This document shows positions 14,055 to 56,721 of a stretch of DNA of 64,000 nt, in pieces; positions within the stretch are counted from its first letter, which is position 1, and the number at the start of each line of letters is the position of its first letter. The notes under the pieces are model-generated. The model was not told the DNA's origin. It saw nothing but the letters and a program-made list of their open reading frames with translations, and ran no database searches. The translations under genes were made by a program, and so were the position numbers. Origin of the DNA: a virus; IMG/VR virus record IMGVR_UViG_3300049259_000288, positions 1 through 64,000 of that record, one strand, 5' to 3'.

Positions 14055-14326
14055 TGGTCCGCGTCGAGACCGTTGGCTCGGTGTGGCTGATCGACGAGAC
14101 CGAGGGTCGCTACTGCCGCTTCCCGCTCGAGGAGAAGCCGCGCGAGCGGGCCGAGTGGGGCGACGAGCGCGCCGGTGACCTGCAGGACCTCGTATGGCAC
14201 GACTTCGCCGGTCAGTGGCGCATCGACGACTACACCGGCCGGCTCTTCATCGAGACGCGTTGGAGCGAGGACGAGGGCTGGTGGGTGGTCACGGCCCCCC
14301 GTGCCCGCGTGGTCAGCGAGACGTGA
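14054..14326 (+). CDS. hypothetical protein
   Basis: TGATG overlap. Confidence 0.6.
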   Translation: MVRVETVGSVWLIDETEGRYCRFPLEEKPRERAEWGDERAGDLQDLVWHDFAGQWRIDDYTGRLFIETRWSEDEGWWVVTAPRARVVSET

Positions 14327-15045
14327 GCGAGGACCTCTGGGCGCAGCGCGACGACCCGCGCGTGCGCGAGCGGCTGATCCTGCAGTACCAGCCGCTCGTC
14401 GAGCGTGTCGCCGGCGGCATGTCGACCGGCCTGCCGGCGAGCGTCGATCGAGCCGACCTCGTCGCCGACGGCATCTTCGGTCTGATCGAGGCGGTCGAGT
14501 CCTTCGATCCCTCCGTCGGCGCGCAGTTCGAGTCCTTCGCGATGCGTCGCATCCGTGGCGCCATCCTGGATGCGCTGCGCTCGATCGACTGGGCTCCCCG
14601 GACGATCAGGATGAACGCGCGCCAGCTCGAGCGCGTGCGCAGCGACCTGCAGGCCGAGCTCAATCGCACGCCGACCGAGGCCGAGATCGGCGCCGAGATG
14701 GGCATGAGCGAGGAGTCCGTGGCGCGCCTGATGGGCGAGGTCAACGTGGCTCAGGTGGGTCGCTTCGACGCCGAACTCGAGCAGTGGCACGGCTACGTGT
14801 CCCGCAGCGACAACCCCGGCGCTCCGGAGTTCCGGCTGTTCGACCCCGAGCGCCTGGCCGACCTGCTGGCCGACGCCATCGTCGAGCTCACGGGCCGGGA
14901 GCGCGTGGTCTTCACGCTGTACTACGTGGAGGAGGTCACCTTCAAGGAGATCGGCGAGCTCCTCGGCGTGTCGAAGGTGCGCGTCAGCCAGCTGCGCGAC
15001 GACGCCATGCTGCGCGTCAAGGAACACCTGGCGAAGGCGTCATGA
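14323..15045 (+). CDS. RNA polymerase sigma factor, FliA/WhiG (sigma-28) family
   Basis: RERLILQYQPLV, DLVADGIFGLIEAV, RIRGAILDALRSIDWAPRTIR, PTEAEIG, region 4 TFKEIGELLGVSKVRVSQL. Confidence 0.93.
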   Translation: MSEDLWAQRDDPRVRERLILQYQPLVERVAGGMSTGLPASVDRADLVADGIFGLIEAVESFDPSVGAQFESFAMRRIRGAILDALRSIDWAPRTIRMNARQLERVRSDLQAELNRTPTEAEIGAEMGMSEESVARLMGEVNVAQVGRFDAELEQWHGYVSRSDNPGAPEFRLFDPERLADLLADAIVELTGRERVVFTLYYVEEVTFKEIGELLGVSKVRVSQLRDDAMLRVKEHLAKAS

Positions 15046-15170
15046 ACACGATCGAGAAGGCCATCTACACCGCCGACCGCGTGCTCACCGACAGGTTCCG
15101 CATCTGGTGGCGGCGGCGCCACGGCATCTACACCATCGGTCGATGGAAGTACCCGTGGCGATCCTCGTGA
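15042..15170 (+). CDS. small basic hypothetical protein
   Basis: ATGA overlap with the sigma stop. Confidence 0.45.
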   Translation: MNTIEKAIYTADRVLTDRFRIWWRRRHGIYTIGRWKYPWRSS

Positions 15171-15186
15171 CGATCGCATAGACGCC

Positions 15187-15262
15187 TGGCTCGGGGAGCA
15201 CGGTTCGAACGTGCATCGTCCTGATCCAAAGTCAGGCGTCTTTCCGCTTAGACCACCCCCGA
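15187..15262 (-). tRNA. tRNA-Gln(TTG)
   Basis: Cloverleaf; loop CT-TTG-GA; encoded CCA. Confidence 0.9.
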
Positions 15263-15277
15263 ACGAAGAACCAGCAA

Positions 15278-15299
15278 GGGGGTCCCTTTCGGGACCCCC
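15278..15299 (-). terminator. GC-rich hairpin, possible terminator or processing signal
   Basis: GGGGGTCCC-GAAA-GGGACCCCC followed by TTGCTGGTTCTT on the minus strand. Confidence 0.5.
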
Positions 15300-15351
15300 A
15301 GGCCGGGATAGAGCACCGCCTCGCGGCGGGGGCTTCGTAGCGCAGGTGATC

Positions 15352-15900
15352 CTACGCGACGGCGCCGGCGACGTTGTCGATGGGGAGGTACGGGGCCCAC
15401 GTCGGGTTGGCCTCGCGGATCCCCATGAGCAACCAGTACGTGCCCGTCGGGACGTAGGGCTTGAACGCGAGAACCCAGTCCATCTCGGCCAGCGTGTGAG
15501 CGGCCTTCCGCGCGTTGCACGGACGGCACGCGGCCACGACGTTGGTCCAGGTGTGCCGGCCACCCCGCGACCGCGGGTGAACATGGTCGACGGTGGTGCC
15601 GCGCCGCGGCGCCCACTGCCGTTCCCCGCGGTGGTTCTCGGGGATGCAGTAGGCGCACCGGTGCTCGTCACGCCGCAGGACCGCGGCGTTCGACAGCGCG
15701 ATGCGCGCGGTGTACGGCACCTGCACGTACTTCCGCAGGCGGATCACCTCGGGCACGGGCACCGAGGCGCGTGCTGAGTGGTAGGCGTCGTCACCGGCCT
15801 CGAGCACCTCGGCCTTCTCGGCCATGACGAGCACGACGGCCCGGCGGGTGTCGATGATCCGAAGCGGGGTGTAGTCAGCATTGATCAGCAGGGCCGCCAT
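15352..15900 (-). CDS. HNH endonuclease
   Basis: LLINADYTPL, RRDEHRCAYC, TVDHVHPRSRGG..W.NVVAAC..CN..K. Confidence 0.9.
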   Translation of the reverse strand: MAALLINADYTPLRIIDTRRAVVLVMAEKAEVLEAGDDAYHSARASVPVPEVIRLRKYVQVPYTARIALSNAAVLRRDEHRCAYCIPENHRGERQWAPRRGTTVDHVHPRSRGGRHTWTNVVAACRPCNARKAAHTLAEMDWVLAFKPYVPTGTYWLLMGIREANPTWAPYLPIDNVAGAVA

Positions 15901-15916
15901 CTGCGTCTCCTTTCCT

Positions 15917-16648
15917 TCATCGTTGGCGCGCCCTTGTTTGCGCATCCAGTCGTTGTTGTCGTTGGACCGGGTCGGCCCAAACCTTCCGCTGTGCCTCGGC
16001 CATGCGCGCGCGGGTCTCCTCGCTCACGACCCGCGCGGTGTTCATCTGCGCGATGGCTTCCCGCTGCGTCTCGGTGCGCTCGTAGCGCCCGACGCCAGGC
16101 GAGGGTCCGTTCCTGGCGTAGGTTGCACGCAGGGACGCAGCGATCTTGGACCGGGTCTCATCTGAGAGCCGTCGCCCGGTGTTCGACCTGGCGATCTTCG
16201 CGATGACTTCGGGCGCTCGTGGGCGGTCTTTGAGCGTCGCGCGTATCTTTTCGCGAACCACCGTGGGCATGGGCCCCTTGGGCTTGCCCCTTTGCCAGGC
16301 TGACATCTTCGCCTTTGTTGACACGGAGTGGTGATGGCCTGTCAGACCTTCGCCGCCATCCGTGTGATTCGTGAGTCGGGCTACAGCGCGGTAGTGCTGG
16401 ATCCAGTGGCGTTCGCGAGCGGCCCAGTCCTCGCGACCGTCTACGACCTCCACGAGCTGGATGATCGGCGGCGAGTTGTCTGCGAGACATCTTCTGATCC
16501 ACCGATCACGATGGGTGGAGGTTCGACCGGATCGCGCAGACCAAAGGTGGTAGGCGAGCCGGTCGCCCAGTGGCTTGACGGTCTTTCCGACGTACCGGAT
16601 TTCGTTGGAACGCTGGTCGATGAGCACATAGATGGACGTGGGTTGCAC
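15917..16648 (-). CDS. GIY-YIG homing endonuclease with NUMOD3-like repeats
   Basis: IYVLID...IRYVGKT, ERHWI, NHTDGGEG, HS..TKAKMS and LSDETRSKIA repeats. Confidence 0.85.
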   Translation of the reverse strand: MQPTSIYVLIDQRSNEIRYVGKTVKPLGDRLAYHLWSARSGRTSTHRDRWIRRCLADNSPPIIQLVEVVDGREDWAARERHWIQHYRAVARLTNHTDGGEGLTGHHHSVSTKAKMSAWQRGKPKGPMPTVVREKIRATLKDRPRAPEVIAKIARSNTGRRLSDETRSKIAASLRATYARNGPSPGVGRYERTETQREAIAQMNTARVVSEETRARMAEAQRKVWADPVQRQQRLDAQTRARQR

Positions 16649-16656
16649 GATCTCCG

Positions 16657-16678
16657 ACAGTAAACGGAGGGTGTGACG
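16657..16678 (-). promoter_or_regulatory. YGTCAC-N10-TANNNT promoter
   Basis: CGTCAC-N10-TACTGT, 8 nt before GTG 16648. Confidence 0.55.
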
Positions 16679-16683
16679 GAAAG

Positions 16684-16755
16684 CTCCGGGACGAGGACTT
16701 GAACCCCGTATTCGAGGTCCAGAACCTCGCGTGTTGCCGATTACACCATCCCGGA
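16684..16755 (-). tRNA. tRNA-Gln(CTG)
   Basis: Loop TT-CTG-GA. Confidence 0.9.
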
Positions 16756-16762
16756 ATGATGG

Positions 16763-16837
16763 TGGTCGGGAACCGGGGAGTCGAACCCCGCGCCTTCTGC
16801 CCCCCAGGCAGACGTGCTACCGCTGCACCAGTTCCCG
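16763..16837 (-). tRNA. tRNA-Pro(GGG)
   Basis: Loop CT-GGG-GG; CCA. Confidence 0.9.
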
Positions 16838-16844
16838 TTGTCGA

Positions 16845-16919
16845 TGGTCAGGGTGACACGAGTCGAACGTGCATCCTCCTGCCCCCAAAGCAGGCGCGCG
16901 GCCTTTGCGCTACACCCTG
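16845..16919 (-). tRNA. tRNA-Pro(TGG)
   Basis: Loop TT-TGG-GG; CCA. Confidence 0.9.
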
Positions 16920-16924
16920 TTGCG

Positions 16925-16999
16925 TCTAGCTGGGGAGATTTGAACTCCCGACCTCCTCGTCCCGAACGAGGCGCGCTGACCAAGCTGCGCTACAGCTAG
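16925..16999 (-). tRNA. tRNA-Pro(CGG)
   Basis: Loop TT-CGG-GA. Confidence 0.9.
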
Positions 17000-17000
17000 T

Positions 17001-17075
17001 TGGCGTCCCCGGCACGACTCGAACGTGCGCGCTGCGATTTAGAAGATCGCGGCTCTGCCGCTGAGCTACGGGGAC
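17001..17075 (-). tRNA. tRNA-Arg(TCT)
   Basis: Loop CT-TCT-AA; CCA. Confidence 0.9.
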
Positions 17076-17080
17076 TCGCG

Positions 17081-17153
17081 AGCCGGTGACAGGAGTCGAA
17101 CCTGCGCGTTCCGCATTACGAGGGCGGTGCTCAGCCACCCGAGCATCACCGGC
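17081..17153 (-). tRNA. tRNA-Thr(CGT)
   Basis: Loop CT-CGT-AA. Confidence 0.85.
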
Positions 17154-17198
17154 GAGAACTACTAAATCGCGAAGAACTAGTAGAGAACTAGTAGTTGG

Positions 17199-17274
17199 TG
17201 GTACCCGCGGCGCGAGTCGAACGCGCAAACACCTGATCTTGAGTCAGGCGGCTCGCCGGATGGCCTACGCGGGC
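17199..17274 (-). tRNA. tRNA-Leu(CAA), short variable loop
   Basis: Loop CT-CAA-GA; CCA. Confidence 0.85.
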
Positions 17275-17279
17275 TTGCG

Positions 17280-17354
17280 TGTCCACGACAGGCGTCGAAC
17301 CTGCACGTTACGACGGTCTGAACGTCGCTCCTCTGCCAGTTGGGATACGTGGAC
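17280..17354 (-). tRNA. tRNA-Leu(CAG), short variable loop
   Basis: Loop TT-CAG-AC. Confidence 0.85.
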
Positions 17355-17355
17355 G

Positions 17356-17432
17356 TGGTACTCGGGATGGGATTTGAACCCACACGCACCACGCTCTCGA
17401 CGTGGCGGCTTTGCCGATTTGCCTACCCGAGC
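17356..17432 (-). tRNA. tRNA-Leu(GAG), short variable loop, C33
   Basis: Loop TC-GAG-AG; CCA. Confidence 0.85.
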
Positions 17433-17439
17433 TTGGTGC

Positions 17440-17513
17440 TGGTGGACCCGACGGGAGTTGAACCCGCAATCGTCTCCTTGCAGGGGAGGTGCTAGCCGTT
17501 CAGCTTCGAGCCC
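17440..17513 (-). tRNA. tRNA-Ala(TGC), C33
   Basis: G3:U70, A73; loop CC-TGC-AA; CCA. Confidence 0.8.
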
Positions 17514-17521
17514 GAGATGGT

Positions 17522-17606
17522 TGGTGCGGCTGCCCACGCTCGTCAGCGCGAAGCATCACGGCAGGGGCTCTCCCGATGCGCTCGGGCGCCTTTCTCAGCC
17601 GCACCA
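17522..17606 (-). ncRNA. structured non-tRNA element in the tRNA array
   Basis: 11-bp terminal stem TGGTGCGGCTG/CAGCCGCACCA enclosing internal hairpins. Confidence 0.45.
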
Positions 17607-17607
17607 G

Positions 17608-17679: not shown

Positions 17680-17689
17680 GTAGAACGTG

Positions 17690-17732: not shown

Positions 17733-17748
17733 ACGCTTCTCTCGCAAA

Positions 17749-17827: not shown

Positions 17828-17838
17828 TCGCTCTTGAG

Positions 17839-17947: not shown

Positions 17948-17973
17948 TGAACCTTCTCGTCGATGTCGCCGAT
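17948..17973 (+). promoter_or_regulatory. sigma-28-type late promoter
   Basis: TGAA-N16-GCCGAT, GTG 9 nt downstream. Confidence 0.8.
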
Positions 17974-17982: not shown

Positions 17983-18105
17983 GTGAAGCTGAGCTCGCGT
18001 GCGGTCACCAACATCCTGACGATCATCGTGCTGATCGTGGCGCTGCTGCCGCTCGAGGTGTGGCTCCTCGACAACATCTTTCACTTCGGATACAGCGGCG
18101 ACTAG
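17983..18105 (+). CDS. small membrane protein antisense within the tRNA array
   Basis: 40 aa, one hydrophobic helix; fills the only long non-tRNA gap; own promoter. Confidence 0.65.
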   Translation: MKLSSRAVTNILTIIVLIVALLPLEVWLLDNIFHFGYSGD

Positions 18106-23684: not shown

Positions 23685-23710
23685 TGAAACGTCGAGGTCG
23701 GATAGCCGAT
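23685..23710 (+). promoter_or_regulatory. sigma-28-type late promoter
   Basis: TGAA-N16-GCCGAT(AG). Confidence 0.8.
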
Positions 23711-23745: not shown

Positions 23746-23967
23746 ATGGCAGAAGGCGACCGCCCGTTCGCGGGGACCCAGATCGGCAGCGACGGCAAGC
23801 GGTACGACACCGGCGATCAGCCGACGACCCGCGAGACGCCCAAGACCACCTACCAGGTGTTCGGCACGCCGTCGCCCGGCGACATCGTCTGGTGGAACCC
23901 CGACACCGAGCGCCTCGAGTTCACGGACTTCGACACGGCGTCGGCGTACGTCCCGTCGAGCAGCTAG
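23746..23967 (+). CDS. hypothetical protein (predicted late gene)
   Basis: GGAGG RBS; own late-type promoter; converges on the glycosyltransferase operon. Confidence 0.7.
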   Translation: MAEGDRPFAGTQIGSDGKRYDTGDQPTTRETPKTTYQVFGTPSPGDIVWWNPDTERLEFTDFDTASAYVPSSS

Positions 23968-28052: not shown

Positions 28053-28078
28053 TGAATCGAGCGCCTCCGAACGCCGAT
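28053..28078 (+). promoter_or_regulatory. sigma-28-type late promoter (portal)
   Basis: TGAA-N16-GCCGAT, GTG 9 nt downstream. Confidence 0.82.
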
Positions 28079-32125: not shown

Positions 32126-32151
32126 TGAATCTTCGGAGGGTCGCCGCCGAT
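32126..32151 (+). promoter_or_regulatory. sigma-28-type late promoter (scaffold/capsid)
   Basis: TGAA-N16-GCCGAT, GTG 9 nt downstream. Confidence 0.82.
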
Positions 32152-32160: not shown

Positions 32161-32862
32161 GTGGAGGGCGCAGTGGTCACCGACGAGCTTCGTGCGATCC
32201 ACGATCTGCTCGTCGAAGCCAAGGCGCCTGAGAGCGAGCACGGTCCTGCGAACTGCGGGGTGTGCGCCGAGCGTGCCGGTCTGACGCCGGTTCATCAGGA
32301 GGGACACGTGAGCACCTACACCAAGGAGCAGCTCGACGCAGCCGTCGCCGAGGCGACGGGTCCGCTGCAGGCGCAGCTGGCCGAGCTCGAGAAGGCACAG
32401 ACCGCCGAGCAGATCGCGGCCCAGATCGCCGAGGCGGTCACGCCGCTGAACGACAAGATCGCTGAGCTCGAGGCTGCGAGCGACACGCTCACCGCCGAGC
32501 TCAACACGGTGAAGGCCGAGCGCGACGAGCTCGTGCAGGCCAACACCGACCGCGAGGCCGCAGCCGCCGCCGAGGCCGAGAAGGCCGCCCGGCGCGACGA
32601 GCGGGTCTCCAAGGTGCTCGAGGTGGCGTCGTTCACCGAGGAGCAGGTGGCCGAGCGCGCCGACCGGTGGGCCGACATGGACGACACGTCCTTCGACACG
32701 CTCATCGAGGATCTCAAGGCCCAGGCCACCCCGCCCGGGCCCGGCGAGGTCGTGCCGAGGCCGGTCCTCAAGGCCCACGAGTCCGCCAAGGCCACCGGTG
32801 GTCTGTCCAGCGCCATGACCACGGCGCTCGGCTTCCGCCGCCAGGGCATCAAGACCGTCTGA
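32161..32862 (+). CDS. capsid scaffolding protein
   Basis: Ala/Glu coiled coil between protease and capsid genes. Confidence 0.7.
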   Translation: MEGAVVTDELRAIHDLLVEAKAPESEHGPANCGVCAERAGLTPVHQEGHVSTYTKEQLDAAVAEATGPLQAQLAELEKAQTAEQIAAQIAEAVTPLNDKIAELEAASDTLTAELNTVKAERDELVQANTDREAAAAAEAEKAARRDERVSKVLEVASFTEEQVAERADRWADMDDTSFDTLIEDLKAQATPPGPGEVVPRPVLKAHESAKATGGLSSAMTTALGFRRQGIKTV

Positions 32863-32878
32863 GGTTCGAGGAGGACCG

Positions 32879-33451
32879 ATGAGCAACTACGGCCGCTACT
32901 TCGAGTTCCGCAACAGCCCCCGTCCGGAGAACCGGTACGGGCGTGCGCTGTCGCCGAACGCCGTCATCCCGATCGGTGCGCCGGTCGTGGCTGGCACTGC
33001 CGCCCCCAACGCCGACGGTCGCAGCGTGTACGCGCTCAAGACCGGCGGCCAGACGGGTCGGCCCCTGCCGGTCAAGAACGGGCTGGCGATCTTCGAGCAC
33101 TCGTACAACGCGTACGCGGGCTTCGACACCGAGCTCACCGTGCCGTCGGACTTCTCCGACATCCCGGCGAACTCGCCGATCCAGGTGTGCCACGGCACGA
33201 ACATCAAGGTGGTGTTCCGCAACATCACGGCGGACACGGTCTTCCTGGGCCAGCGGACCTACGACGACGCCAGGGTGATGATCGCCCCCGGCAACCTCGG
33301 CACCCTCGGTGTCGGCGACTTCATCGTGCCCGGCACGGGCGACGGCACCTCGGGCTACTGGGCCGAGGGCGGCGACGCCGACACGGCCTGGTTCCAGATC
33401 ACCTCGGTCGACACCGCTCGCGGTGAGGTCGAGGCCCAGATGTTGTTCTGA
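32879..33451 (+). CDS. capsid decoration/cement protein
   Basis: Beta-rich, directly upstream of the major capsid gene; GAGGAGG RBS. Confidence 0.55.
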   Translation: MSNYGRYFEFRNSPRPENRYGRALSPNAVIPIGAPVVAGTAAPNADGRSVYALKTGGQTGRPLPVKNGLAIFEHSYNAYAGFDTELTVPSDFSDIPANSPIQVCHGTNIKVVFRNITADTVFLGQRTYDDARVMIAPGNLGTLGVGDFIVPGTGDGTSGYWAEGGDADTAWFQITSVDTARGEVEAQMLF

Positions 33452-33471
33452 CGGTCTGAGGAGGACCTGAC

Positions 33472-34407
33472 ATGACCACGGTGACCAAGGTCGACCCCTG
33501 GACCAACAACGAGGAGCGAGCCAAGGCTCGCGCCATCGTCGAGGCCGCCAACCAGGAGGCGCGCGACCGGTGGGAAGATGACGACTTCCACCGGGAGTTC
33601 GCGGCGGTGATGACCACCAACATCTTCGAGGGCTTCCGGCACGAGAACGTGCTCTCGCTGATGACCCAGGTGGAGACGGTCGGGCTCAACGACCGCATCA
33701 CCATCCGCGAGGTGCGCGGCCTCCGGGTGTTCTGGGTCTCGCTGGGTGGCTACATCGAGCAGAGCACCCTGCGTGCTCGCGTGATGGAGCTCACCAAGGA
33801 CCAGGTGGGCTTCCACCTGTCCGAGAACGAGGACAAGATGACGGCGAACTTCGTCGAGTCCTCGGGCGAGATCGAGGACCTGGCCATCCAGACGATGGAT
33901 GCCGCCATGCAGGTCCGCCTGATCTCGATGTTCCAGGTGGCGATCCCCGACACCTCGCCGTACTACATCGAGGGCGCGGGGCTGTCGCTGGCGGCGCTCG
34001 ACACCGCCCTCACCGAGGTCGAGGACGAGACCGAGCTCGACCTGCCGGCCATCATCGGTCGTGCGCCGATGGTCAACCAGATCTTCAACGATCTGCTGGC
34101 CAGCAACAACTTCACGCCGGAGACCAACGAGCAGCTGCTCCGCACCGGCGTCATCGGCATCTACAAGGGTGCCCGCGTCATCCGGCTCCGCAACTTCAAG
34201 AACGACATCGGGACGCCCTACTTCCCGAACAACGAGCTCTACGTCGTCGGACGTGACGCCTCGAAGTTCGGCTTCTGGGGCGGCCTGACCACGAAGGAGT
34301 GGGTGGAGCAGGGCGGCTGGTACTGGCACCTCATGGGTCGCCGGCTGGCCGGTGGGGCGCTCTACCGCCCCGAGCGGGTGCGCCGCATCGTCGACACCTC
34401 GCTCTGA
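33472..34407 (+). CDS. major capsid protein
   Basis: 311 aa; strong RBS; position; HK97-like C-terminal pattern; followed by a hairpin. Confidence 0.75.
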   Translation: MTTVTKVDPWTNNEERAKARAIVEAANQEARDRWEDDDFHREFAAVMTTNIFEGFRHENVLSLMTQVETVGLNDRITIREVRGLRVFWVSLGGYIEQSTLRARVMELTKDQVGFHLSENEDKMTANFVESSGEIEDLAIQTMDAAMQVRLISMFQVAIPDTSPYYIEGAGLSLAALDTALTEVEDETELDLPAIIGRAPMVNQIFNDLLASNNFTPETNEQLLRTGVIGIYKGARVIRLRNFKNDIGTPYFPNNELYVVGRDASKFGFWGGLTTKEWVEQGGWYWHLMGRRLAGGALYRPERVRRIVDTSL

Positions 34408-34420
34408 TCCGAGACGCGAT

Positions 34421-34452
34421 GACCGCCGGCCCCTTCACCGGGGCCGGCTGTC
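34421..34452 (+). terminator. hairpin after the major capsid gene
   Basis: GCCGGCCCC-TTCACC-GGGGCCGGC. Confidence 0.6.
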
Positions 34453-34539
34453 GCGTCCGGGACCATCACGTGCATCTTGGCCATGCTGCGGTAGAACTCG
34501 TCGCTGCGCACGTGCTCAGCGTGCAGACGGAGGACACCT

Positions 34540-35124
34540 ATGGCGACAGAAGTCGACCCCGCAGACCCGTTCGCCGGTCTCGAGGCATGGCAGTACACGG
34601 CGCGCGGCAAGCTCTACCTGCGGAGGTACACCGGCAAGCACGGCGAGGTCTCCTACGAGCCCATCCAGGGCGGGCAGACCTTCCACCTGACGCCGGCGGA
34701 GCGCCACCTCAACAGCGACAAGGTGAAGGACCCGGCCCGGGACCCCTTCCGCAACGGCACCTGCGTGCCGGTGCGCCTGACCGAGGAGACGCCGTCGCGC
34801 GACCGCGAGGCGATCGAGTCGAACCCGACGCTGCTGACCGACGATCAGATCATCGCTCTGTTCTCGAACCGCAAGGGCTCGGCCGAGACGCTCGTCGACA
34901 CGCTGGCCAAGATCGACAACCCGGTGGTGCTCGAGCGCATCCTCAACCTGGCCAACGATGCCGACCTGCCGGGCAGCCGGATCTCGGCCATCAAGTCCAG
35001 GCTCGAGGACGTCAACCCCGGCGTCGCCGGCGAGCGCACGCTCATCGCGGCGGCGAACGAGGTGGACTCGGCCGACATCTACGGCGACACCATGACCGGG
35101 CCGAGGACGGTCACGGCCGACTGA
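34540..35124 (+). CDS. hypothetical protein (head-tail region)
   Basis: GGAGG RBS. Confidence 0.7.
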   Translation: MATEVDPADPFAGLEAWQYTARGKLYLRRYTGKHGEVSYEPIQGGQTFHLTPAERHLNSDKVKDPARDPFRNGTCVPVRLTEETPSRDREAIESNPTLLTDDQIIALFSNRKGSAETLVDTLAKIDNPVVLERILNLANDADLPGSRISAIKSRLEDVNPGVAGERTLIAAANEVDSADIYGDTMTGPRTVTAD

Positions 35125-35164
35125 GCCTGCCGGTCGTCCCGGCTGGCGGGACGAGGAGGATCCC

Positions 35165-35671
35165 GTGGGAGTAGCACTCGCCAACCTGGTGCCGACGCTG
35201 CGGCGGACGGTGAACCCACCCGGACAGGACTTCTATCCGGGGACCGGCCAGGCCGAGTGGCGGGGCCGTCTCGCTGACGCGTTCTGGAAGGCGCGGCTCA
35301 ACGACTTCTTCTCGGGCTACGCCATCAACGAGGACGGCTCCGAGGTCGTGCCGATCGACTCCACCGCCGAGGACCTCGGTCGCGAGCAGCAGGAGCTGAT
35401 CGTGCAGTTCGCCGCGCTCACCGCCATCCGCAACAAGATCCTGTCGCTGCCGACGACCTCGCGGGCCAAGGCGGGGCCGGTCGAGACCGAGACCCAGCGG
35501 TCCGCCGCGGTGCTCGTCCAGATGCTCAAGGACATCACCGCGGAGATGGCCGAGACCCGCCACATCGTGCTCGCCGGCAACGCGCCGCGCGCCGCCACGT
35601 TCTTCGACAGCATGGTGCTCGCCGCCAACCGGCTGGCTGCGAGCTACGACGTCTACGGGTTCGTGACCTGA
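35165..35671 (+). CDS. putative head-to-tail adaptor
   Basis: Position; helical with RAKAGPVETET. Confidence 0.5.
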   Translation: MGVALANLVPTLRRTVNPPGQDFYPGTGQAEWRGRLADAFWKARLNDFFSGYAINEDGSEVVPIDSTAEDLGREQQELIVQFAALTAIRNKILSLPTTSRAKAGPVETETQRSAAVLVQMLKDITAEMAETRHIVLAGNAPRAATFFDSMVLAANRLAASYDVYGFVT

Positions 35672-35672
35672 C

Positions 35673-36122
35673 GTGGCCGAGCCCGACCCGACCGGCAACT
35701 TCAACGCCGCGGAGACGCGCGCCCAGCTGCAGGCGGCGATGCAGCTGGGCCTGCCGAACGACGAGGACCAGCGCCCGACGTTCTACTTCCCGACCGACGA
35801 CTCCTTCGTCGAGGCGTCGATGTCGGGCGCGCCGTGGGACTGGGAGGCCACGCCCCTCGAGAACAACCCCGACCGCGAGCCCGTGCAGGTTCCGTGCGCC
35901 GTGGAGGTCAGCGGCATCGAGATCGACCTGAGCACGGTCGGGCAGTTCAATCCCCAGCGCGCGCGGCTCACGATCCTCGACGAGGACTTCGAGCTCGTGC
36001 GCGGCTTCCACGAGGTGACGATGAGCGGTGCCATCTACCGCTACTCGAAGCTCGTGCAGATCATCGGGCTCTACGACATGGACACCTATATCGTGGAAGT
36101 CCTCGCCCGGGATCGCCCCTGA
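35673..36122 (+). CDS. putative head-to-tail stopper
   Basis: Position; beta-rich. Confidence 0.45.
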   Translation: MAEPDPTGNFNAAETRAQLQAAMQLGLPNDEDQRPTFYFPTDDSFVEASMSGAPWDWEATPLENNPDREPVQVPCAVEVSGIEIDLSTVGQFNPQRARLTILDEDFELVRGFHEVTMSGAIYRYSKLVQIIGLYDMDTYIVEVLARDRP

Positions 36123-36643
36123 TGACCGTCGACTTCACCACCGGCGGCAAGCGCGACCGGCTGATCCGCGACGCCGTGGCCGGCGTGGTCAAGGACGGCA
36201 TCGACTCCCTCGGCTGGCTCAGCGGGACGCGCAAGCACCTGCCGATCAACTGGCGCGATGAGGCGATCACCGAGACCGACACCGTGGTGCCGCTGAACAC
36301 CATCACGCTGGTGTCCGACAGCGAGCGGGACGAGGAGCGCGAGCTCGGCACCAACGCCACCGAGGACCGCTGGTCGTTCTGGGTCGACTTCTACGCCGAG
36401 AACGAGGACATCGGCCGCGAGATGATCGGTGACGTCCGGGACATCCTGCGCGGCAAGTACCCGTCGATCGGGCGGACGGCGCCGGTGGTGCTGGTCTATG
36501 ACCCGCTCTCGGACCCGCCCGAGCTGCTCTTCGGGCTCGAGATCGAGAACGTCGAACCCGACCGGCCGCCCCGGCAGACCCAGCGCCCATTCGAGCAGTT
36601 CTGGTTCACCTGCTCCTTCGATGTGGTCGACGAGCGTGACTGA
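36122..36643 (+). CDS. putative tail terminator
   Basis: Position; FWVDFYA, WFTCSFDV. Confidence 0.5.
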   Translation: MTVDFTTGGKRDRLIRDAVAGVVKDGIDSLGWLSGTRKHLPINWRDEAITETDTVVPLNTITLVSDSERDEERELGTNATEDRWSFWVDFYAENEDIGREMIGDVRDILRGKYPSIGRTAPVVLVYDPLSDPPELLFGLEIENVEPDRPPRQTQRPFEQFWFTCSFDVVDERD

Positions 36644-36929
36644 CGAGCTCGCCAGCCTGGTCGAAGACCGGTCGCGCGCCGCGGTCAAGCGGATCCTGTC
36701 GCTCAAGGAGCGCATTGCGGATCCCCACCTGGAAAAGCGGGACCAGGAGAGGCTTCGTGCGGTCGTCGTCGACGAGATCGGCGAGCTCACGCGCCTGTCC
36801 TCCACGCTGCTGCGTTCGCTGAGCGGCCAGCTCGTGGACGGGTACGCCATGAACCAGATGTGGCTCGAGCAGATCGCCCAGAGCCTGGGCGTCGAGCTCG
36901 AGGAGGTGGAGGGTGCCCGCACCGTATAG
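36636..36929 (+). CDS. hypothetical protein
   Basis: Overlapping ORF. Confidence 0.6.
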   Translation: MTDELASLVEDRSRAAVKRILSLKERIADPHLEKRDQERLRAVVVDEIGELTRLSSTLLRSLSGQLVDGYAMNQMWLEQIAQSLGVELEEVEGARTV

Positions 36930-37851
36930 GCACGCCCGGATGCTCGACGCCCATCTCGTGGCGACGTCGCATGACATGGGCCAGGCCTACAACCTCGCGC
37001 TGGTGGACGCCTTCGTCGCCGCCGTGGAAGCCGCTGGCACTGAGGTCGGCAAGGTCCTGCGCGACATCACCCGTGTCATGGCATCGGGCGTGGGCGATGC
37101 GCAGCTCGCCAAGGCCCACGAGACCATCGCCCGCAAGGGCCAGGACTCGGTGCTGCGCTCCTATGACCAGGTGGTCACCGCGCGCAACAAGCGCCGCCTG
37201 GGGCCCTACCGCGACGTCATCGACCCGCCGTCGCGCCCGCAGAACGTCCGCTTCGCCAACGGCAAGCTGCGCGCGGCACTGGGCGCGGCGGACTTCTGGG
37301 AGGCCGATGCCCACGGCATCCGCTTCATCAACGTCGACATGCTCAACCACCGGGCTCGGCAGTGGGCCCGTCTGTCCGCGGGCGCCGGCGGCCGTGGCGC
37401 GGGCAGCAAGCAGCGGTTCGAGGTGAAGTGGGGCGAGCTCGTGGTGGCGAGCCTCGGGCTGAACATGCGCCCCTCGCCATCCTTCGTGGTCCCGAAGGGC
37501 TACTGGTTCGATCCCGAGTCCGGGCATCCGGTCGGCCCGGGAGCTCGCGGCACGTCCCGCTTCTTCCCCATGGGTGAGGGCCCTCGTTCCGGTGCGCGCT
37601 CTTCTCTCGTCGGCAAGAACGCCGATGGCAAGAAGGTCCGGGTGCCCATGCAGCGTCGACGCGTCTCGAGGGGCATCGAGGCGCGCAACTTCCTCGACGC
37701 CGGCGTGCGGCGCATCGCGCGCGAGATCGGGCCCACCTACGAGCGCGTCCACCGGGAGTGGTTCGAGACCAAGGTCGCGCACGCCCGTCCGGCGTCCCAG
37801 ACCTTCCACGTGACCGTGCGGAAGAACCTGGCATCCGTCGGCGTCCGGTGA
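36913..37851 (+). CDS. putative neck/tail completion protein
   Basis: Basic; GIEARNFLDAG resembles the C-terminus of HK97 gp10-like proteins. Confidence 0.45.
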   Translation: MPAPYRHARMLDAHLVATSHDMGQAYNLALVDAFVAAVEAAGTEVGKVLRDITRVMASGVGDAQLAKAHETIARKGQDSVLRSYDQVVTARNKRRLGPYRDVIDPPSRPQNVRFANGKLRAALGAADFWEADAHGIRFINVDMLNHRARQWARLSAGAGGRGAGSKQRFEVKWGELVVASLGLNMRPSPSFVVPKGYWFDPESGHPVGPGARGTSRFFPMGEGPRSGARSSLVGKNADGKKVRVPMQRRRVSRGIEARNFLDAGVRRIAREIGPTYERVHREWFETKVAHARPASQTFHVTVRKNLASVGVR

Positions 37852-37874
37852 ATCTTCGGCCCTCGGCCGCCGAT
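37849..37874 (+). promoter_or_regulatory. sigma-28-type late promoter (tail operon)
   Basis: TGAA-N16-GCCGAT, GTG 8 nt downstream. Confidence 0.8.
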
Positions 37875-51700: not shown

Positions 51701-53298
51701 CCGGCGCGCCGGCGGTCATCGGCGTGGAAAGACCCGCCGACACCTACTTCGTTGACGCTGGCGACGTCACCACGTTCGTTGCGCACTGCATGTTCCTGCT
51801 GTCGTGGGCGTTCGACGGCACCGACCAGCCGGTGCGTGAGGCGCGCGCATCGATCACGTTCGCCAACAGTTTCAACGAGGACATCACCACCGTGCACGGG
51901 CCGTGGCTTGTCCTTCCGTTCTTCGACGCCGGGTTCCGACCGATCAAGGTGAAGGCCGCCGCCCCTACTGGCACGGTCACGGCCGGGTTCACCGTCGAGA
52001 TGCGCCACGGCGACGGCACACCGTTCACCTCGACCGATGACCAGCTCGTTGTGAGCTCCCCCGACTTCTGGGTGGGCGCCGACAAGCTCGTCGACTTCGG
52101 CGACAACGGCCTCGTCAAGCTCGGCGACGCGCTCATCGCCGCAGGACCATCCGCCCCGGGCGGGCCGACGCAGATGCACGTGCTCGGCGGCGACGCTTTC
52201 GGCCCACGCGCCGATCACCACGCGCTCACCGCGGGTGTGGACGACGGCACCATCTGGGCCGCGGCGTGGCTCGGCGCGCCGACCTACGAGTACCGGATCC
52301 GCCAGTACAGCCATCTCGGCGCGCTGCTCCGCGACTTCCCGTCGCCGCACGGGATGCCGGTGCAGTTGGCGCCCACCGACGGCTGGCTCTACTACACGGT
52401 CGGCACCATGAACGTGTACGGCATCCACCTCGCTACCGGCACCGACGTCATCGTCATCGACAGCGCCTACAACCACGACCACCTCGACAACGACAACATC
52501 GCCGGCCTCGCCGTGCTCAAGCAGCCCACAGGTGACGCGCCTGCGCCGGACGACCCGGCGATGCCGCTCCTCCCCGACGGCATCAGGCTTCTCACCGGAC
52601 GGCAAGACACCTTCCACATCACCGAACCCGGCGTCGACACGACACCCGCCGACATCCTCCGCTTCGCCGCCAGCGCCATGGTCCCCGGCACCGTGCACGC
52701 GGAGTCGGAGCGGTCGTTCGTGTACCTCGCGCGCGGCAGCCTCAGCGGCTACGACCACGGCATCGCCCGCATGTGGACTGACGGCATCACCTGGATGGAG
52801 GACCCCGTCGTCACGTTCCTCACCCCAGCGCGCGGAGCCGCCGTCGCGCTCGTCCCATCGCGGGTCGTGCACGTCCTCGCGGCGCAGGGTGTGACCGCGA
52901 CGTTGCACCGCGGCCGGCAGGTCAAGACCGCGAACGTCAACGTCGGCCGGATGCGACCCAACCATCGCGTGTCGACCGGCGGCGACCTCGTGCGCGTCGC
53001 GTGGGAGGTCACCGGCCGCGTCTACGAGAACGGTCCCGACGCGACGCCGATCGACATCACTGGGCATCTCGTCAAGGCGGTCCTCACTGCCGACATTGCC
53101 GGTACCACGGACACGACGATCACCGTGACGCGCGACGGCACCACCGTCGGCACGGCGATGCTTCCTGCCGGTGAGACCGAATGGGAGACGCCGTTCGGCA
53201 CGATCACCTGGGCGTCCGGGCAGGATGTCGACTTCACCCTCGCTCCCGGCATGGGACTCGAGGGGCTCATCGTCGAGCTCGACTGGTCGTGGTCATGA
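48703..53298 (+). CDS. large minor tail/receptor-binding protein with N-terminal Kelch propeller
   Basis: YLxxG/IGG/GG...YD..TDTW repeats. Confidence 0.7.
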   Translation: MAAWAPIADLPEVGDTWSVCAHAGKVYLTLGRTPTYGAGYPWILEYDPVADTYTQKAECPHPCSYGSFAYWDGVFYLIGGDDVDDNSTRVLGYDIATDTWFECAALPYKSEDGAAIAIAGGAGGKIVVTGGYDDTTLHGHTQVYDIATDTWSVGTDWPGVIGYHAMVPGATSGTVQTIGGYGNLTGPDDPRDDMIVVYEYTLATSTWAHVGDVSLPIDGPAFTQVGTDAYLVSGTYIPDADYVPTVQVWGIASHAPQHDTDYPSGIWAAAATAIGTTIFVFGGYATGPGETAGAYKLATDPQPGWPSSPVPSETPGDSAYRPLLIPDPGGSSDVSGTLDATTVGATSRGYDPYATFGYGSSIWIKFPRLPEGAFVHVTVHGGAFGASWFAALYRVTPGNFFGSSSGGNQLAGATVELDNTFIPSDGTYDYLLVVVSQTTDEHAFTVDWRHAIPLSAPHNDGKYSLAVPERRKRHPWYTKPRWAQGRGTSSYPTYPGNPNAYDVTMRPAPYGPNDAMIITNEHIGAGVRHVHFTADAVTVGPPTLLRPVTDDGGGIYHSDFLGNDGIAAMITNRIEGEPEFWIYGLDAATQAFDVAPGPVGLYNSNAIWTVRLSATRGLFFCDASQTGIGPYISSGIIGIVDFDGVTPTITSISLDEALGSPTPSTQSTSVFTFTWATRLTDTTALVLFRYYEYTGPDFPFYTERRRAGVLTISGSTATFGPLTELDPIENIDPENWGIGYYGLFNSFRSATPGRVDAPVRHFDDSIDLAVFTIAGGAVSISFEPVPIHPFIIIGWPMDLGGGLGWALVDPRSSIPNTLLAPVSRFSQSGVRYPLQSVEDPDVSIDIENAILIGGSPYGDNNSEYSLNPVYMVRPTLVGDLVLNTNFGTDVVTCIQIPPEPAGPRDAQHATIIEVDPTIPDPSGFAMAAYTPIYEFTGEADSGPALFMGDAHRSDHDAWRALDGSTLPVLFHEGYRTVDFLGVPPYIPDQDLDIRVRWVGTGAPAVIGVERPADTYFVDAGDVTTFVAHCMFLLSWAFDGTDQPVREARASITFANSFNEDITTVHGPWLVLPFFDAGFRPIKVKAAAPTGTVTAGFTVEMRHGDGTPFTSTDDQLVVSSPDFWVGADKLVDFGDNGLVKLGDALIAAGPSAPGGPTQMHVLGGDAFGPRADHHALTAGVDDGTIWAAAWLGAPTYEYRIRQYSHLGALLRDFPSPHGMPVQLAPTDGWLYYTVGTMNVYGIHLATGTDVIVIDSAYNHDHLDNDNIAGLAVLKQPTGDAPAPDDPAMPLLPDGIRLLTGRQDTFHITEPGVDTTPADILRFAASAMVPGTVHAESERSFVYLARGSLSGYDHGIARMWTDGITWMEDPVVTFLTPARGAAVALVPSRVVHVLAAQGVTATLHRGRQVKTANVNVGRMRPNHRVSTGGDLVRVAWEVTGRVYENGPDATPIDITGHLVKAVLTADIAGTTDTTITVTRDGTTVGTAMLPAGETEWETPFGTITWASGQDVDFTLAPGMGLEGLIVELDWSWS

Positions 53299-56207
53299 CA
53301 AACAGGGTTCGGCTGTACGACGGCACCACCATCACGCCGGCGCTCGACTTCAACGCGTACCACGGGCGGTGGACGTGCACCGTCGACCCGTTCACGTGGC
53401 CGACGGGCACCGACGGCACGTTCTTCGAGTACGACTTCGCGGTCGCCGACCCGCTCGACTCGACGCTGTTCTACTGGTTCTACATCGGGTGCAACACGGC
53501 GCTGCCGACGTCGACGGTCACCGGCGGGTTCACCTTCGACAGCGACGCCCCGCCGGCCTGGGCTGACTACTGGGGTGTTGGGCACAAGGCCAAGACCGCG
53601 TATGACGGCACGTACCCGTCGCCGATCATCTACGACGGCACCTACACCGCGTACAACGTCTCGACACCCGCGTTCAGCGTTGACGTGGCGAGCCACCCCG
53701 ACTGGTATCAGCACGCCCCGGTGCCGCCGTGGGATCCGCCGGACATCACGATGCCGGCGTCGGGCATCACCATCAACTCCGCGGTGACCGACATCCTCAT
53801 GGTGAGCTGGAACTACCCGTCGACCGGCGGCGGGCTCAAGGACGCCGACATCCGCGTCGTACTCGACGCGGACGACACGATCGTCTGGCACACCGAAGCG
53901 CGCGGCGGCGTGTCACTCGCGCACGAGCTGGCGACCCCGTACTCCGCGCTCACCGGCCCAGCGACGCTACAGGTACGCCACCAACCGTGGAACACCTACG
54001 GCTGGTCGGACTGGGCGTCGATCCCGATCACGTTGGCGCCGACGATCGTCGAGAACGCCGACTGCTTCCGCCAGCAGATCATCGGCTCAGCGCCGGTCGT
54101 CGCCTATCTGTTCCAAGACACCGAGCCCCCCGTCGTCGAGGACATCAGCGGCCACGGGTTCGACGGGCAATGGCAGGTCGACTACCGGCCGGTGTTCATG
54201 AACACGCCGGCGGCTTGGCAGAACAGCCTCGGCGGAAGCAGCAACAACAAGTTCGGACCAGCGAACTACGGCATGGCCGGACAGGTGTACCCGGTCGCGT
54301 TCTACAAGTTCTATTACACGCCGGGCGACCCGGGCAACCTCGACGTCGGCGACACCATGTCGTACATGGCGACCATGCCCGCCGACTACTCGATCGCGAC
54401 GCCCGCCGGCTGGACAGCGCACGTCGACAACGTCGTGAGTGGTGGTGTGCGCGCCTACTTCGCGACCAAGGTCCACGAAGCGAGCGACCCCGACACCTAT
54501 CCGTTCACGATGACCGGTCCCGGCGACCCGTTCGGCGTCGGCGTGTCCCTGACCGGCGTGTTCCAGGACGTCACGCTCGCCGACGTCGACATGATCGTGC
54601 AAGGCGACGACGACCACTGGCACTGGCCGGGGTTCACCGCCGGATCGTGCACCGACTTCATGTTCTGCATCGGGTTCGCGGAGCCCACCGTCGGCAGCGT
54701 CAACGGCCCGCCCTACTTCGCCTCCGGGTTCGTCAGCTACGGCGCCGGCGGCTACCTCGTGTTCGGCGGCTTCACCCCGCGCGTGGTCGGCACCTATTCC
54801 GACTACACGATGCCAGCCGAGGCGCCGGGATATCACGGCTACCGCGTCGCGGTGATCGTGAAGTTCGAGACGACGGATACGTTCACGCCGGCGCCGATCA
54901 CGATCACGGTCCCGAACCCCGCCGCCACTTACGCCGGCCGGGAAGCGTGGATGCTGCTCGAGGCCGAAGCTGACTCCGGGTACCGGTACCACCCGACGTA
55001 CCTACTCCCGCCGCGCTCACCGTCAACGCCCGCTGGGTGGACGCTCATCGGCGACGTCGTGTTCGAGGACACGCGGTGGCTCGCGCTTCGGCGCGTTATC
55101 CAGGCCGGCGACCCGGACACCGTGGACGTGACATGGCCCGACCGGTACGCGACGCAGAAGTGGGCCGTCGCCTTCTCCCAGGAGCAAGCCGGTCTGCCCT
55201 TCGAGTCGAACGACCATGCGCTTGTCGTTGGCGACGCACAGGTCGGATACTCGACGCCGAGCTTCGACGAGCCCGGCTCGGTCACGTACATGCGGTTCCT
55301 CCGACGCCACGCCAAGGGTGACACCATCCCGTTCGGGCACATCACCAACGCCGGTACCGGCGAAGGCGTCGGCGGCGCGATCACCTCGGGAGCGAACGCC
55401 GCGTCGTTCAAGGGGAACCTGCCCGGCCAGTCGACGGTCCTGAGTGTCGCCAACGTGCACGACCCGGTGTTCGACACCGACTCCGGCATCGAAGGGATCA
55501 TCGTCGTCGCCACCCACCACGACTGGGACGACTACCCGATCCTCAACCAGCACCCGGCGCCCGTGTGCGACGCGGGCTGCGACGAGAACCTCGGCTACCT
55601 CGCGGGACTGTGGCGCGGCGACGACTCGAGCCTCGACACCGCGGATCGGGTCTATCCCTCGCTCCAATACATCGCCAACGCCGACGCCCACGGCGACGGC
55701 ACGTCCGTCGCGATGGAGCTCGTGTTCCGGTTCCCCCGGTCGCTCGGCGCAAACGACATCGACCGAGGCGTTTGGCTGTCCGCCGGCGGAACCCTCTCGG
55801 CCTCGATCAGCTCCTACTTCACCGGCTACTACACGTGGATCACGATGGACGACGGGAGCACGATCATCTTCTCGGAGGAGTTCCCGTTCGAGCTGGGGTG
55901 CTGGTACCACCTCGTCGCGAGCTTCTACGCCGGCAAGTTCCATGTGTTCATCAACGGGCTCGAAGTCCGTTCGCAGTCCACGTCGAGGACGCCGCACGCT
56001 GACTACAGCGGCGCGATGATGACCGCCGACGCCGACGTCCTCCTCGCCGCCTACTACCGCGACGAGCTCGACAGCGAGGCGATCCGAGCGCACTTCCGGC
56101 ACCTCTGCGACCTCTGCGGGAACACGTGGACGAAGCGCCAGGTGCTCCGCGGCCGGCTTGCCGTCACCGGCGTCACCGGAACGGTCGTCAAGATCAAGCC
56201 GCACTAG
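53295..56207 (+). CDS. minor tail protein with LamG/ConA-like domain
   Basis: WYHLVASF...VFING, YYRDELDSEAIRAHF. Confidence 0.65.
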   Translation: MTNRVRLYDGTTITPALDFNAYHGRWTCTVDPFTWPTGTDGTFFEYDFAVADPLDSTLFYWFYIGCNTALPTSTVTGGFTFDSDAPPAWADYWGVGHKAKTAYDGTYPSPIIYDGTYTAYNVSTPAFSVDVASHPDWYQHAPVPPWDPPDITMPASGITINSAVTDILMVSWNYPSTGGGLKDADIRVVLDADDTIVWHTEARGGVSLAHELATPYSALTGPATLQVRHQPWNTYGWSDWASIPITLAPTIVENADCFRQQIIGSAPVVAYLFQDTEPPVVEDISGHGFDGQWQVDYRPVFMNTPAAWQNSLGGSSNNKFGPANYGMAGQVYPVAFYKFYYTPGDPGNLDVGDTMSYMATMPADYSIATPAGWTAHVDNVVSGGVRAYFATKVHEASDPDTYPFTMTGPGDPFGVGVSLTGVFQDVTLADVDMIVQGDDDHWHWPGFTAGSCTDFMFCIGFAEPTVGSVNGPPYFASGFVSYGAGGYLVFGGFTPRVVGTYSDYTMPAEAPGYHGYRVAVIVKFETTDTFTPAPITITVPNPAATYAGREAWMLLEAEADSGYRYHPTYLLPPRSPSTPAGWTLIGDVVFEDTRWLALRRVIQAGDPDTVDVTWPDRYATQKWAVAFSQEQAGLPFESNDHALVVGDAQVGYSTPSFDEPGSVTYMRFLRRHAKGDTIPFGHITNAGTGEGVGGAITSGANAASFKGNLPGQSTVLSVANVHDPVFDTDSGIEGIIVVATHHDWDDYPILNQHPAPVCDAGCDENLGYLAGLWRGDDSSLDTADRVYPSLQYIANADAHGDGTSVAMELVFRFPRSLGANDIDRGVWLSAGGTLSASISSYFTGYYTWITMDDGSTIIFSEEFPFELGCWYHLVASFYAGKFHVFINGLEVRSQSTSRTPHADYSGAMMTADADVLLAAYYRDELDSEAIRAHFRHLCDLCGNTWTKRQVLRGRLAVTGVTGTVVKIKPH

Positions 56208-56240
56208 TCACCCAGCGTGGTGTCACCGTTCGTCCAGGCG

Positions 56241-56266
56241 TGAAACTCGGTTCCGATCCTGCCGAT
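56241..56266 (+). promoter_or_regulatory. sigma-28-type late promoter (membrane/lysis module)
   Basis: TGAA-N16-GCCGAT, GTG 8 nt downstream. Confidence 0.82.
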
Positions 56267-56274
56267 TTAGAGAC

Positions 56275-56721
56275 GTGAAGCTCCCGGTGCCCAACTGGTT
56301 CCCGCCGCTGGCGCGCAACCACCCGGCGTTCTTCCTGTCGTACTCCTTCACCATCCTCCTGAACGCTGGACTTGCGATCTGCTACGCGGTCATTCCCGCC
56401 CGTTCCTTCGACCTCGGCTATCTCCGGCTCGTGAACATGGTCCCGCGCTGGGCGTGGGGCGGCTCCGGTGCTCTGATCGCCGCGCTCCTCATGTTCGGCC
56501 TTCGGCCCGGCCGGTTCCAGTGGGGCCGCGCCGGGTTCGCGATCGGCGTGCTCGTGTGGTTCACACGCGGCTGGCTGATGCTCTGCGCGTTGTGGCTCGA
56601 CGGCGAACGCATCTCGTCGATCGCCGTCCTGGCGTTCTTCTACGCCGCCCTCATGCACATCCCGCAGGGCGTCGAACCCCCCATCAACCCGGTCACCCAG
56701 ACAGAGATCGACATCGAGTGA
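56275..56721 (+). CDS. 4-TM membrane protein
   Basis: Four hydrophobic helices. Confidence 0.75.
   Translation: MKLPVPNWFPPLARNHPAFFLSYSFTILLNAGLAICYAVIPARSFDLGYLRLVNMVPRWAWGGSGALIAALLMFGLRPGRFQWGRAGFAIGVLVWFTRGWLMLCALWLDGERISSIAVLAFFYAALMHIPQGVEPPINPVTQTEIDIE

Follow-up and report, generated by a model that had tools for sequence, protein, structure and literature searches.

What does a sigma factor of the FliA/WhiG family transcribe when it is carried by a phage? The question is raised by the viral record IMGVR_UViG_3300049259_000288, a 76,960-bp sequence of 68% G+C from a soil metagenome assembly, of which we analysed the first 64,000 nucleotides (hereafter, the window); a megablast search of the phage database returned no near-identical entry. 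The window encodes a sigma factor and contains six exact copies of the two-box sequence TGAA-N16-GCCGAT, all on the + strand. An earlier sequence-only reading of this DNA had proposed that the former is a sigma-28-type factor that acts on the latter; the parts of this proposal that can be tested from the sequence held up, and we put the probability that the phage-encoded FliA/WhiG sigma factor has its own promoter class at the six sites at roughly 0.7. The gene and the sites are as follows.

14323..15045, + strand: phage sigma gene (240 amino acids, GTG start, 4-nucleotide (nt) overlap with the upstream open reading frame (ORF))
17948..17973, + strand: site 1, TGAACC-N14-GCCGAT
23685..23710, + strand: site 2, TGAAAC-N14-GCCGAT
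28053..28078, + strand: site 3, TGAATC-N14-GCCGAT
32126..32151, + strand: site 4, TGAATC-N14-GCCGAT
37849..37874, + strand: site 5, TGAATC-N14-GCCGAT
56241..56266, + strand: site 6, TGAAAC-N14-GCCGAT

The count of six exact + strand copies given by the sequence-only reading was borne out, and compares with a mean of 0.10 copies (maximum of 1) in dinucleotide-preserving shuffles. Alignment of the six copies revealed that the C at position 6 is invariant too, giving a core, TGAAnC-N14-GCCGAT, in which 11 bases are fixed and which is expected 0.025 times per whole genome, counting both strands. The spacers are otherwise unrelated among the copies, except that sites 4 and 5 are alike, with common sequence that extends beyond both boxes (TGAATCTTCGG ... 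GCCGCCGAT). In a blind enumeration of dyads, which was underpowered, TGAA-N17-CCGAT ranked fifth.

We observed that all six sites are co-oriented with the next gene and lie 8–35 nt before start codons, in a genome in which sequence outside gene calls makes up ~7% of the total. Sites 2, 3, 4 and 6 lie wholly between genes, site 5 shares only the stop codon with the upstream gene (the TGA of the site is that stop), and site 1 is found in a tRNA array on the minus strand, within a gap of 280 nt. By contrast, variants with one mismatch or with an N15 or N17 spacer all fall within genes inside the window, and the sole intergenic variant in the genome lies beyond it, at genome position 71882. Intergenic enrichment, which had been put forward as a check on the proposal, is therefore supported within the window, where every copy is on the + strand. 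A seventh exact copy, on the minus strand beyond the window (genome 66070–66095), lies inside a + strand gene and is probably a chance occurrence, or else an antisense promoter.

The gene layout was taken from a codon-usage gene call combined with ARAGORN. The virion genes at 28–48.7 kb are syntenic with those of two distant phages, GX15bay (mangrove soil) and the IMG/VR contig G001 (61 kb, 44% G+C); the latter was found by a capsid scan with a two-sequence alignment, a single-protein capsid scan having given no match. Four of the six boxes partition the contiguous 28–58.5 kb block of virion and lysis genes, and the other two precede small genes, as set out below.

17983..18105, + strand: ORF for a 40-residue hydrophobic peptide after site 1 (G+C at third codon positions 0.93, codon score 31.6, one transmembrane-like segment)
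23746..23967, + strand: 73-residue ORF after site 2
28088–30013, + strand: portal-position gene after site 3, syntenic with GX15bay and G001
30006–32000, + strand: prohead-protease-like gene with a 2H-like C-terminal part (PHROG matches for 29943–32000)
32161..37851, + strand: head module after site 4 (scaffold-like gene, capsid, head-completion genes)
32161 or 32173 to 32862, + strand: scaffold-like coiled-coil gene, 33% identical to its GX15bay counterpart
33472–34407, + strand: major capsid protein, 49–50% identical to those of GX15bay and G001
37883–38149, + strand: GIY-YIG-like small gene after site 5 (88 residues, Pfam GIY-YIG)
38168–56207, + strand: tail module, including proteins of 1457 and 1531 residues, syntenic with GX15bay and G001
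56275..58200, + strand: five consecutive membrane proteins after site 6, with transmembrane-like segments and PHROG holin, hol-like and Rz-like (spanin-like) matches

The 73-residue ORF had no match in Pfam or PHROG. Site 5 had been described as heading the tail genes, and the tail module does lie downstream, with the GIY-YIG-like gene as the first gene and the tail genes following it. The last unit, which begins at site 6, ends at ~58.56 kb, where a different promoter-like sequence is found (GTCAC-N10-TACAGT); genes past this point include those for an ATP-grasp protein, a Clp-N domain protein, a DUF5131 protein, an exonuclease, a Dam methylase and Gam.

Flagellar sigma-28 factors (FliA of Escherichia coli and Pseudomonas aeruginosa; SigD of Bacillus subtilis) use promoters of the form TAAA-N15-GCCGATAA. 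Target promoters of WhiG have an N16 spacer, versus N15 for the true flagellar sigma factors (Gallagher et al., PMC7005675), and a 2026 survey gives the Actinomycetota consensus as a −35 element of XT(C/A)AX, a 16-nt spacer and a −10 element of GCCGA (PMC13595943). All six phage sites carry GCCGAT at the −10 position, and all six have the N16 spacing published for WhiG. The −35 element is different: neither TAAA nor T(C/A)A occurs, and 6/6 sites have TGAA, with G at the C/A position. The AA found after the −10 core at flagellar promoters is also absent, site 2 being the only one with A as the next base.

We next considered the distance from the −10 element to the start codons. In the open complex formed by P. 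aeruginosa sigma-28, GCCGATAA spans −15 to −8 (PMC12784957), which places the transcription start (+1) on the 10th base after GCCGAT. At sites 1, 3 and 4, 9 nt separate GCCGAT from an in-frame GTG, which falls exactly on the predicted +1; at sites 5 and 6 the distance is 8 nt and the in-frame GTG falls one base before the predicted +1, in agreement with the spacing of 8–9 nt in five of six cases that had been noted earlier. From base composition, we estimate the chance of an in-frame GTG at +1 or −1 in 5/6 sites as ~3e-7. The GTG is followed by A (GTGA) at 4/5 of these sites. No Shine-Dalgarno box, a feature of 39% of all genes, precedes the leaderless starts proposed for sites 1, 4 (32161), 5 and 6. 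The G001 homologues of the genes at sites 3 and 5 align from residues 8–10, and the next in-frame start codon would cut conserved residues, indicating that the start codon lies within 9 nt of the −10 box; homology with G001 leaves 28082 or 28088 as the start at site 3, and 37877 or 37883 at site 5. Site 2 is arranged differently, with 35 nt from GCCGAT to ATG 23746 and a GGAGG 6 nt before the ATG, and by the same +1 geometry its transcript is predicted to start near 23720 and to have a leader of ~26 nt. The earlier claim that five of the six mRNAs are leaderless can thus be kept in part: four late mRNAs are likely to be leaderless, starting at the start codon, site 4 is ambiguous between 32161 (leaderless) and 32173 on sequence grounds, and site 2 is leadered.

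The start of the sigma gene is supported by the lengths of homologues (238–242 residues). Its product has the Pfam domains Sigma70_r2, r3 and r4, the domain set of group 3 sigma factors, and has neither region 1.1 nor the non-conserved region. It scores 212.4 bits with the FliA_WhiG model TIGR02479, for which the cut-off is 189.6, confirming that a full member of this family is encoded at 14323–15045 as the sequence-only reading had stated. The score with the WhiG equivalog model NF004935 is 210.9 bits against a cut-off of 343, and the protein does not reach the cut-off of any of the equivalog or subfamily models for WhiG, FliA and SigD; the best solved relative is WhiG of Streptomyces venezuelae (184 bits). 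A collection of 5.8 billion proteins contains seven near relatives with 57–74% identity (P0002–P0006, P0008 and P0009), all of them from soil-type metagenome assemblies. Outside this clade, identity drops at once to ~45%, the level of actinobacterial WhiG/FliA proteins. The best matches in species genomes are 41–47% identical and mostly from Pseudonocardiales, a weak hint as to the host. Scans of IMG/VR, JGI metagenomes and GTDB genomes with an alignment of the clade found no clade member, only homologues of 26–48% identity, and a single-protein scan likewise found none.

To relate the sites to the protein, we aligned the eight clade members and the closest 111 cellular homologues. Both groups conserve the readers of the −10 and extended −10 elements, DWxPR..R as well as regions 2.3–2.4 (FE.(F/Y)A..RI(R/K)GAI.D.LR), and the DWAPR, R96, R100 and FE.FA..RIRGAI.D.LR of the phage factor are invariant in clade and cellular homologues alike. 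The Arg of DWxPR corresponds to R97 of the P. aeruginosa factor, which contacts extended −10 G:C pairs (PMC12784957). By contrast, the recognition helix of region 4.2 is altered. This helix is VSKVRVSQLRDDA in the phage factor (SKVRVSQLRDD versus TESRVCQIHTK), whereas the cellular helix reads VTESRVCQIHTKA, with E, S, R and H invariant in 111/111 proteins and Q, T and K present in 109–110 of the 111. The clade helix is VSK(V/A)(R/W)VSQLRDDA; K, R, D and D occur in 8/8 members, and the S position is occupied by V or A, with P0005 and P0009 as SKAW variants. There are hence five fixed differences between the clade and cellular proteins: E to K, S to V/A, H to R, T to D and K to D. The canonical pattern (T/S)ESRxxQxH, which the phage factor lacks, is kept by the seven other viral FliA/WhiG-like sigma factors that we compared, including that of G001; seven of the 10 IMG/VR viral sigma factors tested passed TIGR02479. 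According to an alignment with solved relatives, the changed S position is equivalent to S224 in P. aeruginosa sigma-28, where S224 and one further residue make base-specific −35 contacts (PMC12784957).

A conserved −10 element thus goes with conserved reader residues, and an unusual −35 element goes with a changed helix, suggesting that the phage sigma factor, rather than host WhiG, reads the sites. The shifted −35 element pointed out by the sequence-only reading is in this way matched by the substitutions fixed in the sigma factor's clade. This correspondence between box and helix is a correlation and not a proof; it is the strongest argument for the phage sigma factor as the reader.

We propose the following course of events. 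The sigma gene lies in a terminase operon that has no copy of the motif, suggesting that host RNA polymerase with a host sigma factor probably transcribes it; this gene layout would also fit production of the phage factor ahead of its target genes. The phage sigma factor would then bind the host core polymerase and direct it to the six TGAAnC-N14-GCCGAT promoters, four bordering the portal/protease, head, tail and lysis modules and two that would drive single small genes. Conserved residues of regions 2.4/3.0 would read the GCCGA −10 element, as in bacterial sigma-28 and WhiG, and the altered region 4.2 helix would read the unusual −35 element, T-G-A-A in place of T-A/C-A-A. At four or five of the promoters, transcription would begin on the G of the GTG, or one base from it, yielding leaderless mRNAs. 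High-GC Gram-positive hosts translate leaderless mRNAs well.

Several observations weigh against this proposal, in whole or in part. The pairing of a clade sigma factor with the motif rests on a single genome. The large terminase gene and the probable small terminase gene (10720–11301) lie upstream of the sigma gene in the motif-free operon, so the regulon leaves out some classical late genes. Site 1 is directed antisense into tRNA genes, an unexpected setting for a late promoter; it had been described as the head of an orphan small gene, and the 40-residue ORF does come next, embedded opposite the minus-strand tRNA array. A scan for consensus terminators found no + strand intrinsic terminator between the modules or ahead of sites 3–5, so that read-through transcripts could also express the genes after these three sites. 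The description of each site as the head of a transcription unit therefore stands as regards its orientation and position before the next gene, and sites 3–5 are more aptly termed internal promoters located where modules meet.

The lack of terminators between modules bears directly on an alternative that accepts sigma-dependent promoters and disputes the leaderless mRNAs: translation would start at downstream codons, or on read-through transcripts with upstream Shine-Dalgarno-like sequences, and the GTGA found at most of the GTGs would reflect an initiation preference of the polymerase. Consistent with this, a GAGGT lies directly before the GTG at site 3 (4 nt upstream of 28088) and could be used by read-through transcripts for the portal-position gene. 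Similarly, site 4 has an alternative GTG at 32173, 12 nt downstream of the first, with a GGAGG 5 nt upstream, and the N-termini of homologues fit 32173 slightly better than 32161. However, the next start codons at sites 3 and 5 would delete residues conserved in the G001 homologues, and the alternative leaves the recurrent placement of GTG at +1 or −1 to a very small probability. We regard a leadered arrangement as unlikely overall, while giving it real weight.

A second alternative is that the sites are read mainly by the host's WhiG or FliA, and that the phage sigma factor serves to reprogram host genes for development or motility, or to back up a sequestered WhiG. Host WhiG-type promoters have this same −10 element and 16-nt spacer, which are identical to the actinobacterial WhiG consensus (PMC13595943), so a host sigma factor might read the sites; the canonical −10-reading residues that the phage sigma factor keeps fit this alternative as well. 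However, the host consensus allows only C or A where 6/6 −35 boxes have G, and the clade-specific change in the 4.2 helix matches the altered −35 element. Moreover, a phage that tied all of its virion genes to a developmentally restricted, anti-sigma-controlled host factor would be fragile. On balance, we consider reading by the host factor improbable. A third alternative, that the motif is no promoter and is instead bound by some other phage DNA-binding protein, or is a repeated element between genes such as a processing or insulator site, would account for sites 4 and 5 being alike beyond the boxes, as duplicated elements would be, but is highly improbable given two fixed blocks at a fixed 16-nt distance with otherwise unrelated spacers, strict orientation at 8–35 nt before start codons, and a match to the consensus of a family of which a member is encoded in the same genome.

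A stronger form of the proposal is that the phage sigma factor provides an insulated, orthogonal late switch, in which the 4.2 helix reads TGAAnC, the factor escapes control by RsiG and cyclic di-GMP (c-di-GMP), and +1 falls on the GTG. Within the RsiG-WhiG-c-di-GMP complex structure, Lys57, Gly61 and Arg62 of WhiG touch c-di-GMP (PMC7005675). The aligned residues of the phage sigma factor are E, G and G. The K57 position is K in 110/111 cellular proteins and E or D in 8/8 clade members, and the R62 position is R in 111/111 cellular proteins and G in 8/8 clade members. Loss of K57 and R62 would fit an escape from c-di-GMP-armed RsiG. That all three properties hold together is a tentative suggestion, which we think somewhat doubtful as a package. 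If it is true, host WhiG would not fire the phage late promoters, nor would the phage sigma factor fire the host regulon, and late mRNAs with +1 on the GTG would need no ribosome-binding site.

The system described here resembles WhiG in its group 3 architecture, its TIGR02479 score, its best solved match in S. venezuelae, its GCCGA −10 element and its 16-nt spacer. It differs from WhiG in that the sigma factor is phage-encoded, only ~45% identical to any cellular homologue and below the WhiG equivalog cut-off, with a changed 4.2 helix and K57/R62 replaced by E/G, and in that the promoters have G for C/A in the −35 element and no trailing AA after the −10 element. With flagellar sigma-28 systems it has in common the family, the −10 core GCCGAT, and T1, A3 and A4 of the −35 element. 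By contrast, the phage spacer is one base longer, the second −35 base is G, the S224 equivalent is V, and the sites precede virion and lysis genes rather than flagellar genes.

A phage sigma factor with a few conserved late promoters is a known strategy. Phage sigma factors with cognate middle or late promoters include gp28 and gp33/34 of SPO1, gp55 of T4, gp36 of phiEco32 and that of phage 7-11. For phage 7-11 and phiEco32, the promoters are few and highly conserved (PMC4331800). We likewise observed a phage-encoded sigma factor together with conserved, low-copy promoter-like sites before virion and lysis genes, and the predicted redirection of host core polymerase to a few conserved late-gene promoters would be the same as in these four phages. 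The known factors are, however, highly diverged or extracytoplasmic function (ECF)-like, whereas this one is a clear FliA/WhiG member with a recognisable bacterial-type promoter that is coupled to predicted leaderless start codons. What is particular here, as read from the DNA, is an invariant two-box putative promoter with WhiG spacing and a −35 element off the host consensus, matching a clade-specific helix. Literature searches returned no published description of a phage late regulon of the WhiG/FliA type, and a survey of phage sigma factors makes no mention of the FliA/WhiG family (PMC9429907).

If our interpretation is correct, the late transcription programme of an uncultured soil phage that has no cultured relative can be read from sequence. 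The changed −35 box and changed helix in an otherwise canonical sigma-28 scaffold would form a natural pair with which to test DNA reading by region 4.2 in group 3 sigma factors, and the pair could supply an orthogonal sigma/promoter combination for actinobacterial engineering.

The two phages with syntenic virion genes are only mildly informative on the motif. G001 has the whole virion gene block in common with this phage; by contrast, its sigma factor is canonical and FliA-like (222 bits on TIGR02479), and TGAA-N16-GCCGAT is absent from it. Possible TT(A/C)A-N15-GTCGAA boxes occur in G001 at ~31102, 36856 and 39712, before portal-region, head-completion and GIY-YIG/tail genes; GTCGAA shows no enrichment between genes there, so these boxes are a lead only. 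G001 also keeps the GIY-YIG-like small gene in the equivalent place, first in the tail module. In GX15bay, we found neither a sigma gene nor an intergenic TGAA-N16-GCCGAT. The GX15bay gene annotated as portal was rejected as the homologue of 28088–30013; by synteny, the homologue is its 'PhoH' gene, and the 'portal protein' matches the protease-like gene in the C-terminal part only. The public annotation of GX15bay looks shifted in this region (L004 22352–25174 and 25301–27283).

No comparable regulon was found in 45 IMG/VR loci with sigma homologues, for which 20 kb were examined, and TGAAnC-N14-GCCGAT occurred in none of the relatives' loci examined. An IMG/VR contig with a 32%-identical sigma factor (L033) has two canonical TAAA-N15-GCCGATA boxes, at 11610–11636 and 13429–13455; the contig could come from a phage that has a standard sigma-28 regulon, or else could be flagellar DNA of a bacterium that was binned as viral. 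Comparison of contigs from three sequencing runs (small shares) with 23600–38100 gave only short stretches within coding parts, with no bearing on the conservation of the promoters. None of the runs listed as containing this DNA was an RNA run.

The remainder of the genome is laid out as follows.

0.3–6.8 kb: leftward gene block (gene call)
7.2–15.2 kb, + strand: rightward operon with a helix-turn-helix (HTH) protein, the large terminase, four small ORFs and the sigma gene
10720–11301, + strand: HTH-containing protein, probably the small terminase
11333–13159, + strand: large terminase, 41% identical to that of phage GX15bay
15187–20608, minus strand: 37 tRNA genes covering nearly all amino acids (ARAGORN)
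20.9–28 kb: small genes, plus a cluster on the minus strand that includes glycosyltransferase-like genes
28–75.7 kb, + strand: unbroken rightward block

The distance from the terminase to the portal-position gene is much shorter in GX15bay and G001 than here, where ~15 kb (13167–28039) separate the two and hold small ORFs, the sigma gene, the tRNA array and the glycosyltransferase-like cluster; site 3 heads the portal gene. Transcription from site 1, within the tRNA array, would extend antisense into tRNA-His and past it. A probable small gene at 6933–7200 (+ strand), which is absent from the gene call and has GGGAGGG preceding its GTG, is situated in front of the terminase/sigma operon, in the divergent region. 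Another class of promoter-like sequence, GTCAC-N10-TAnnnT, occurs between genes at 22016–22036 (+ strand), 58567–58587 (+ strand) and 16657–16677 (− strand), and GTCA(C/T) is also found directly upstream of sites 1, 3 and 6. A related sequence, ...GATACTGT (compare 6880–6910), lies ahead of the sigma-containing operon; both the GTCAC-N10-TAnnnT class and GATACTGT may be promoters read by a host sigma factor.

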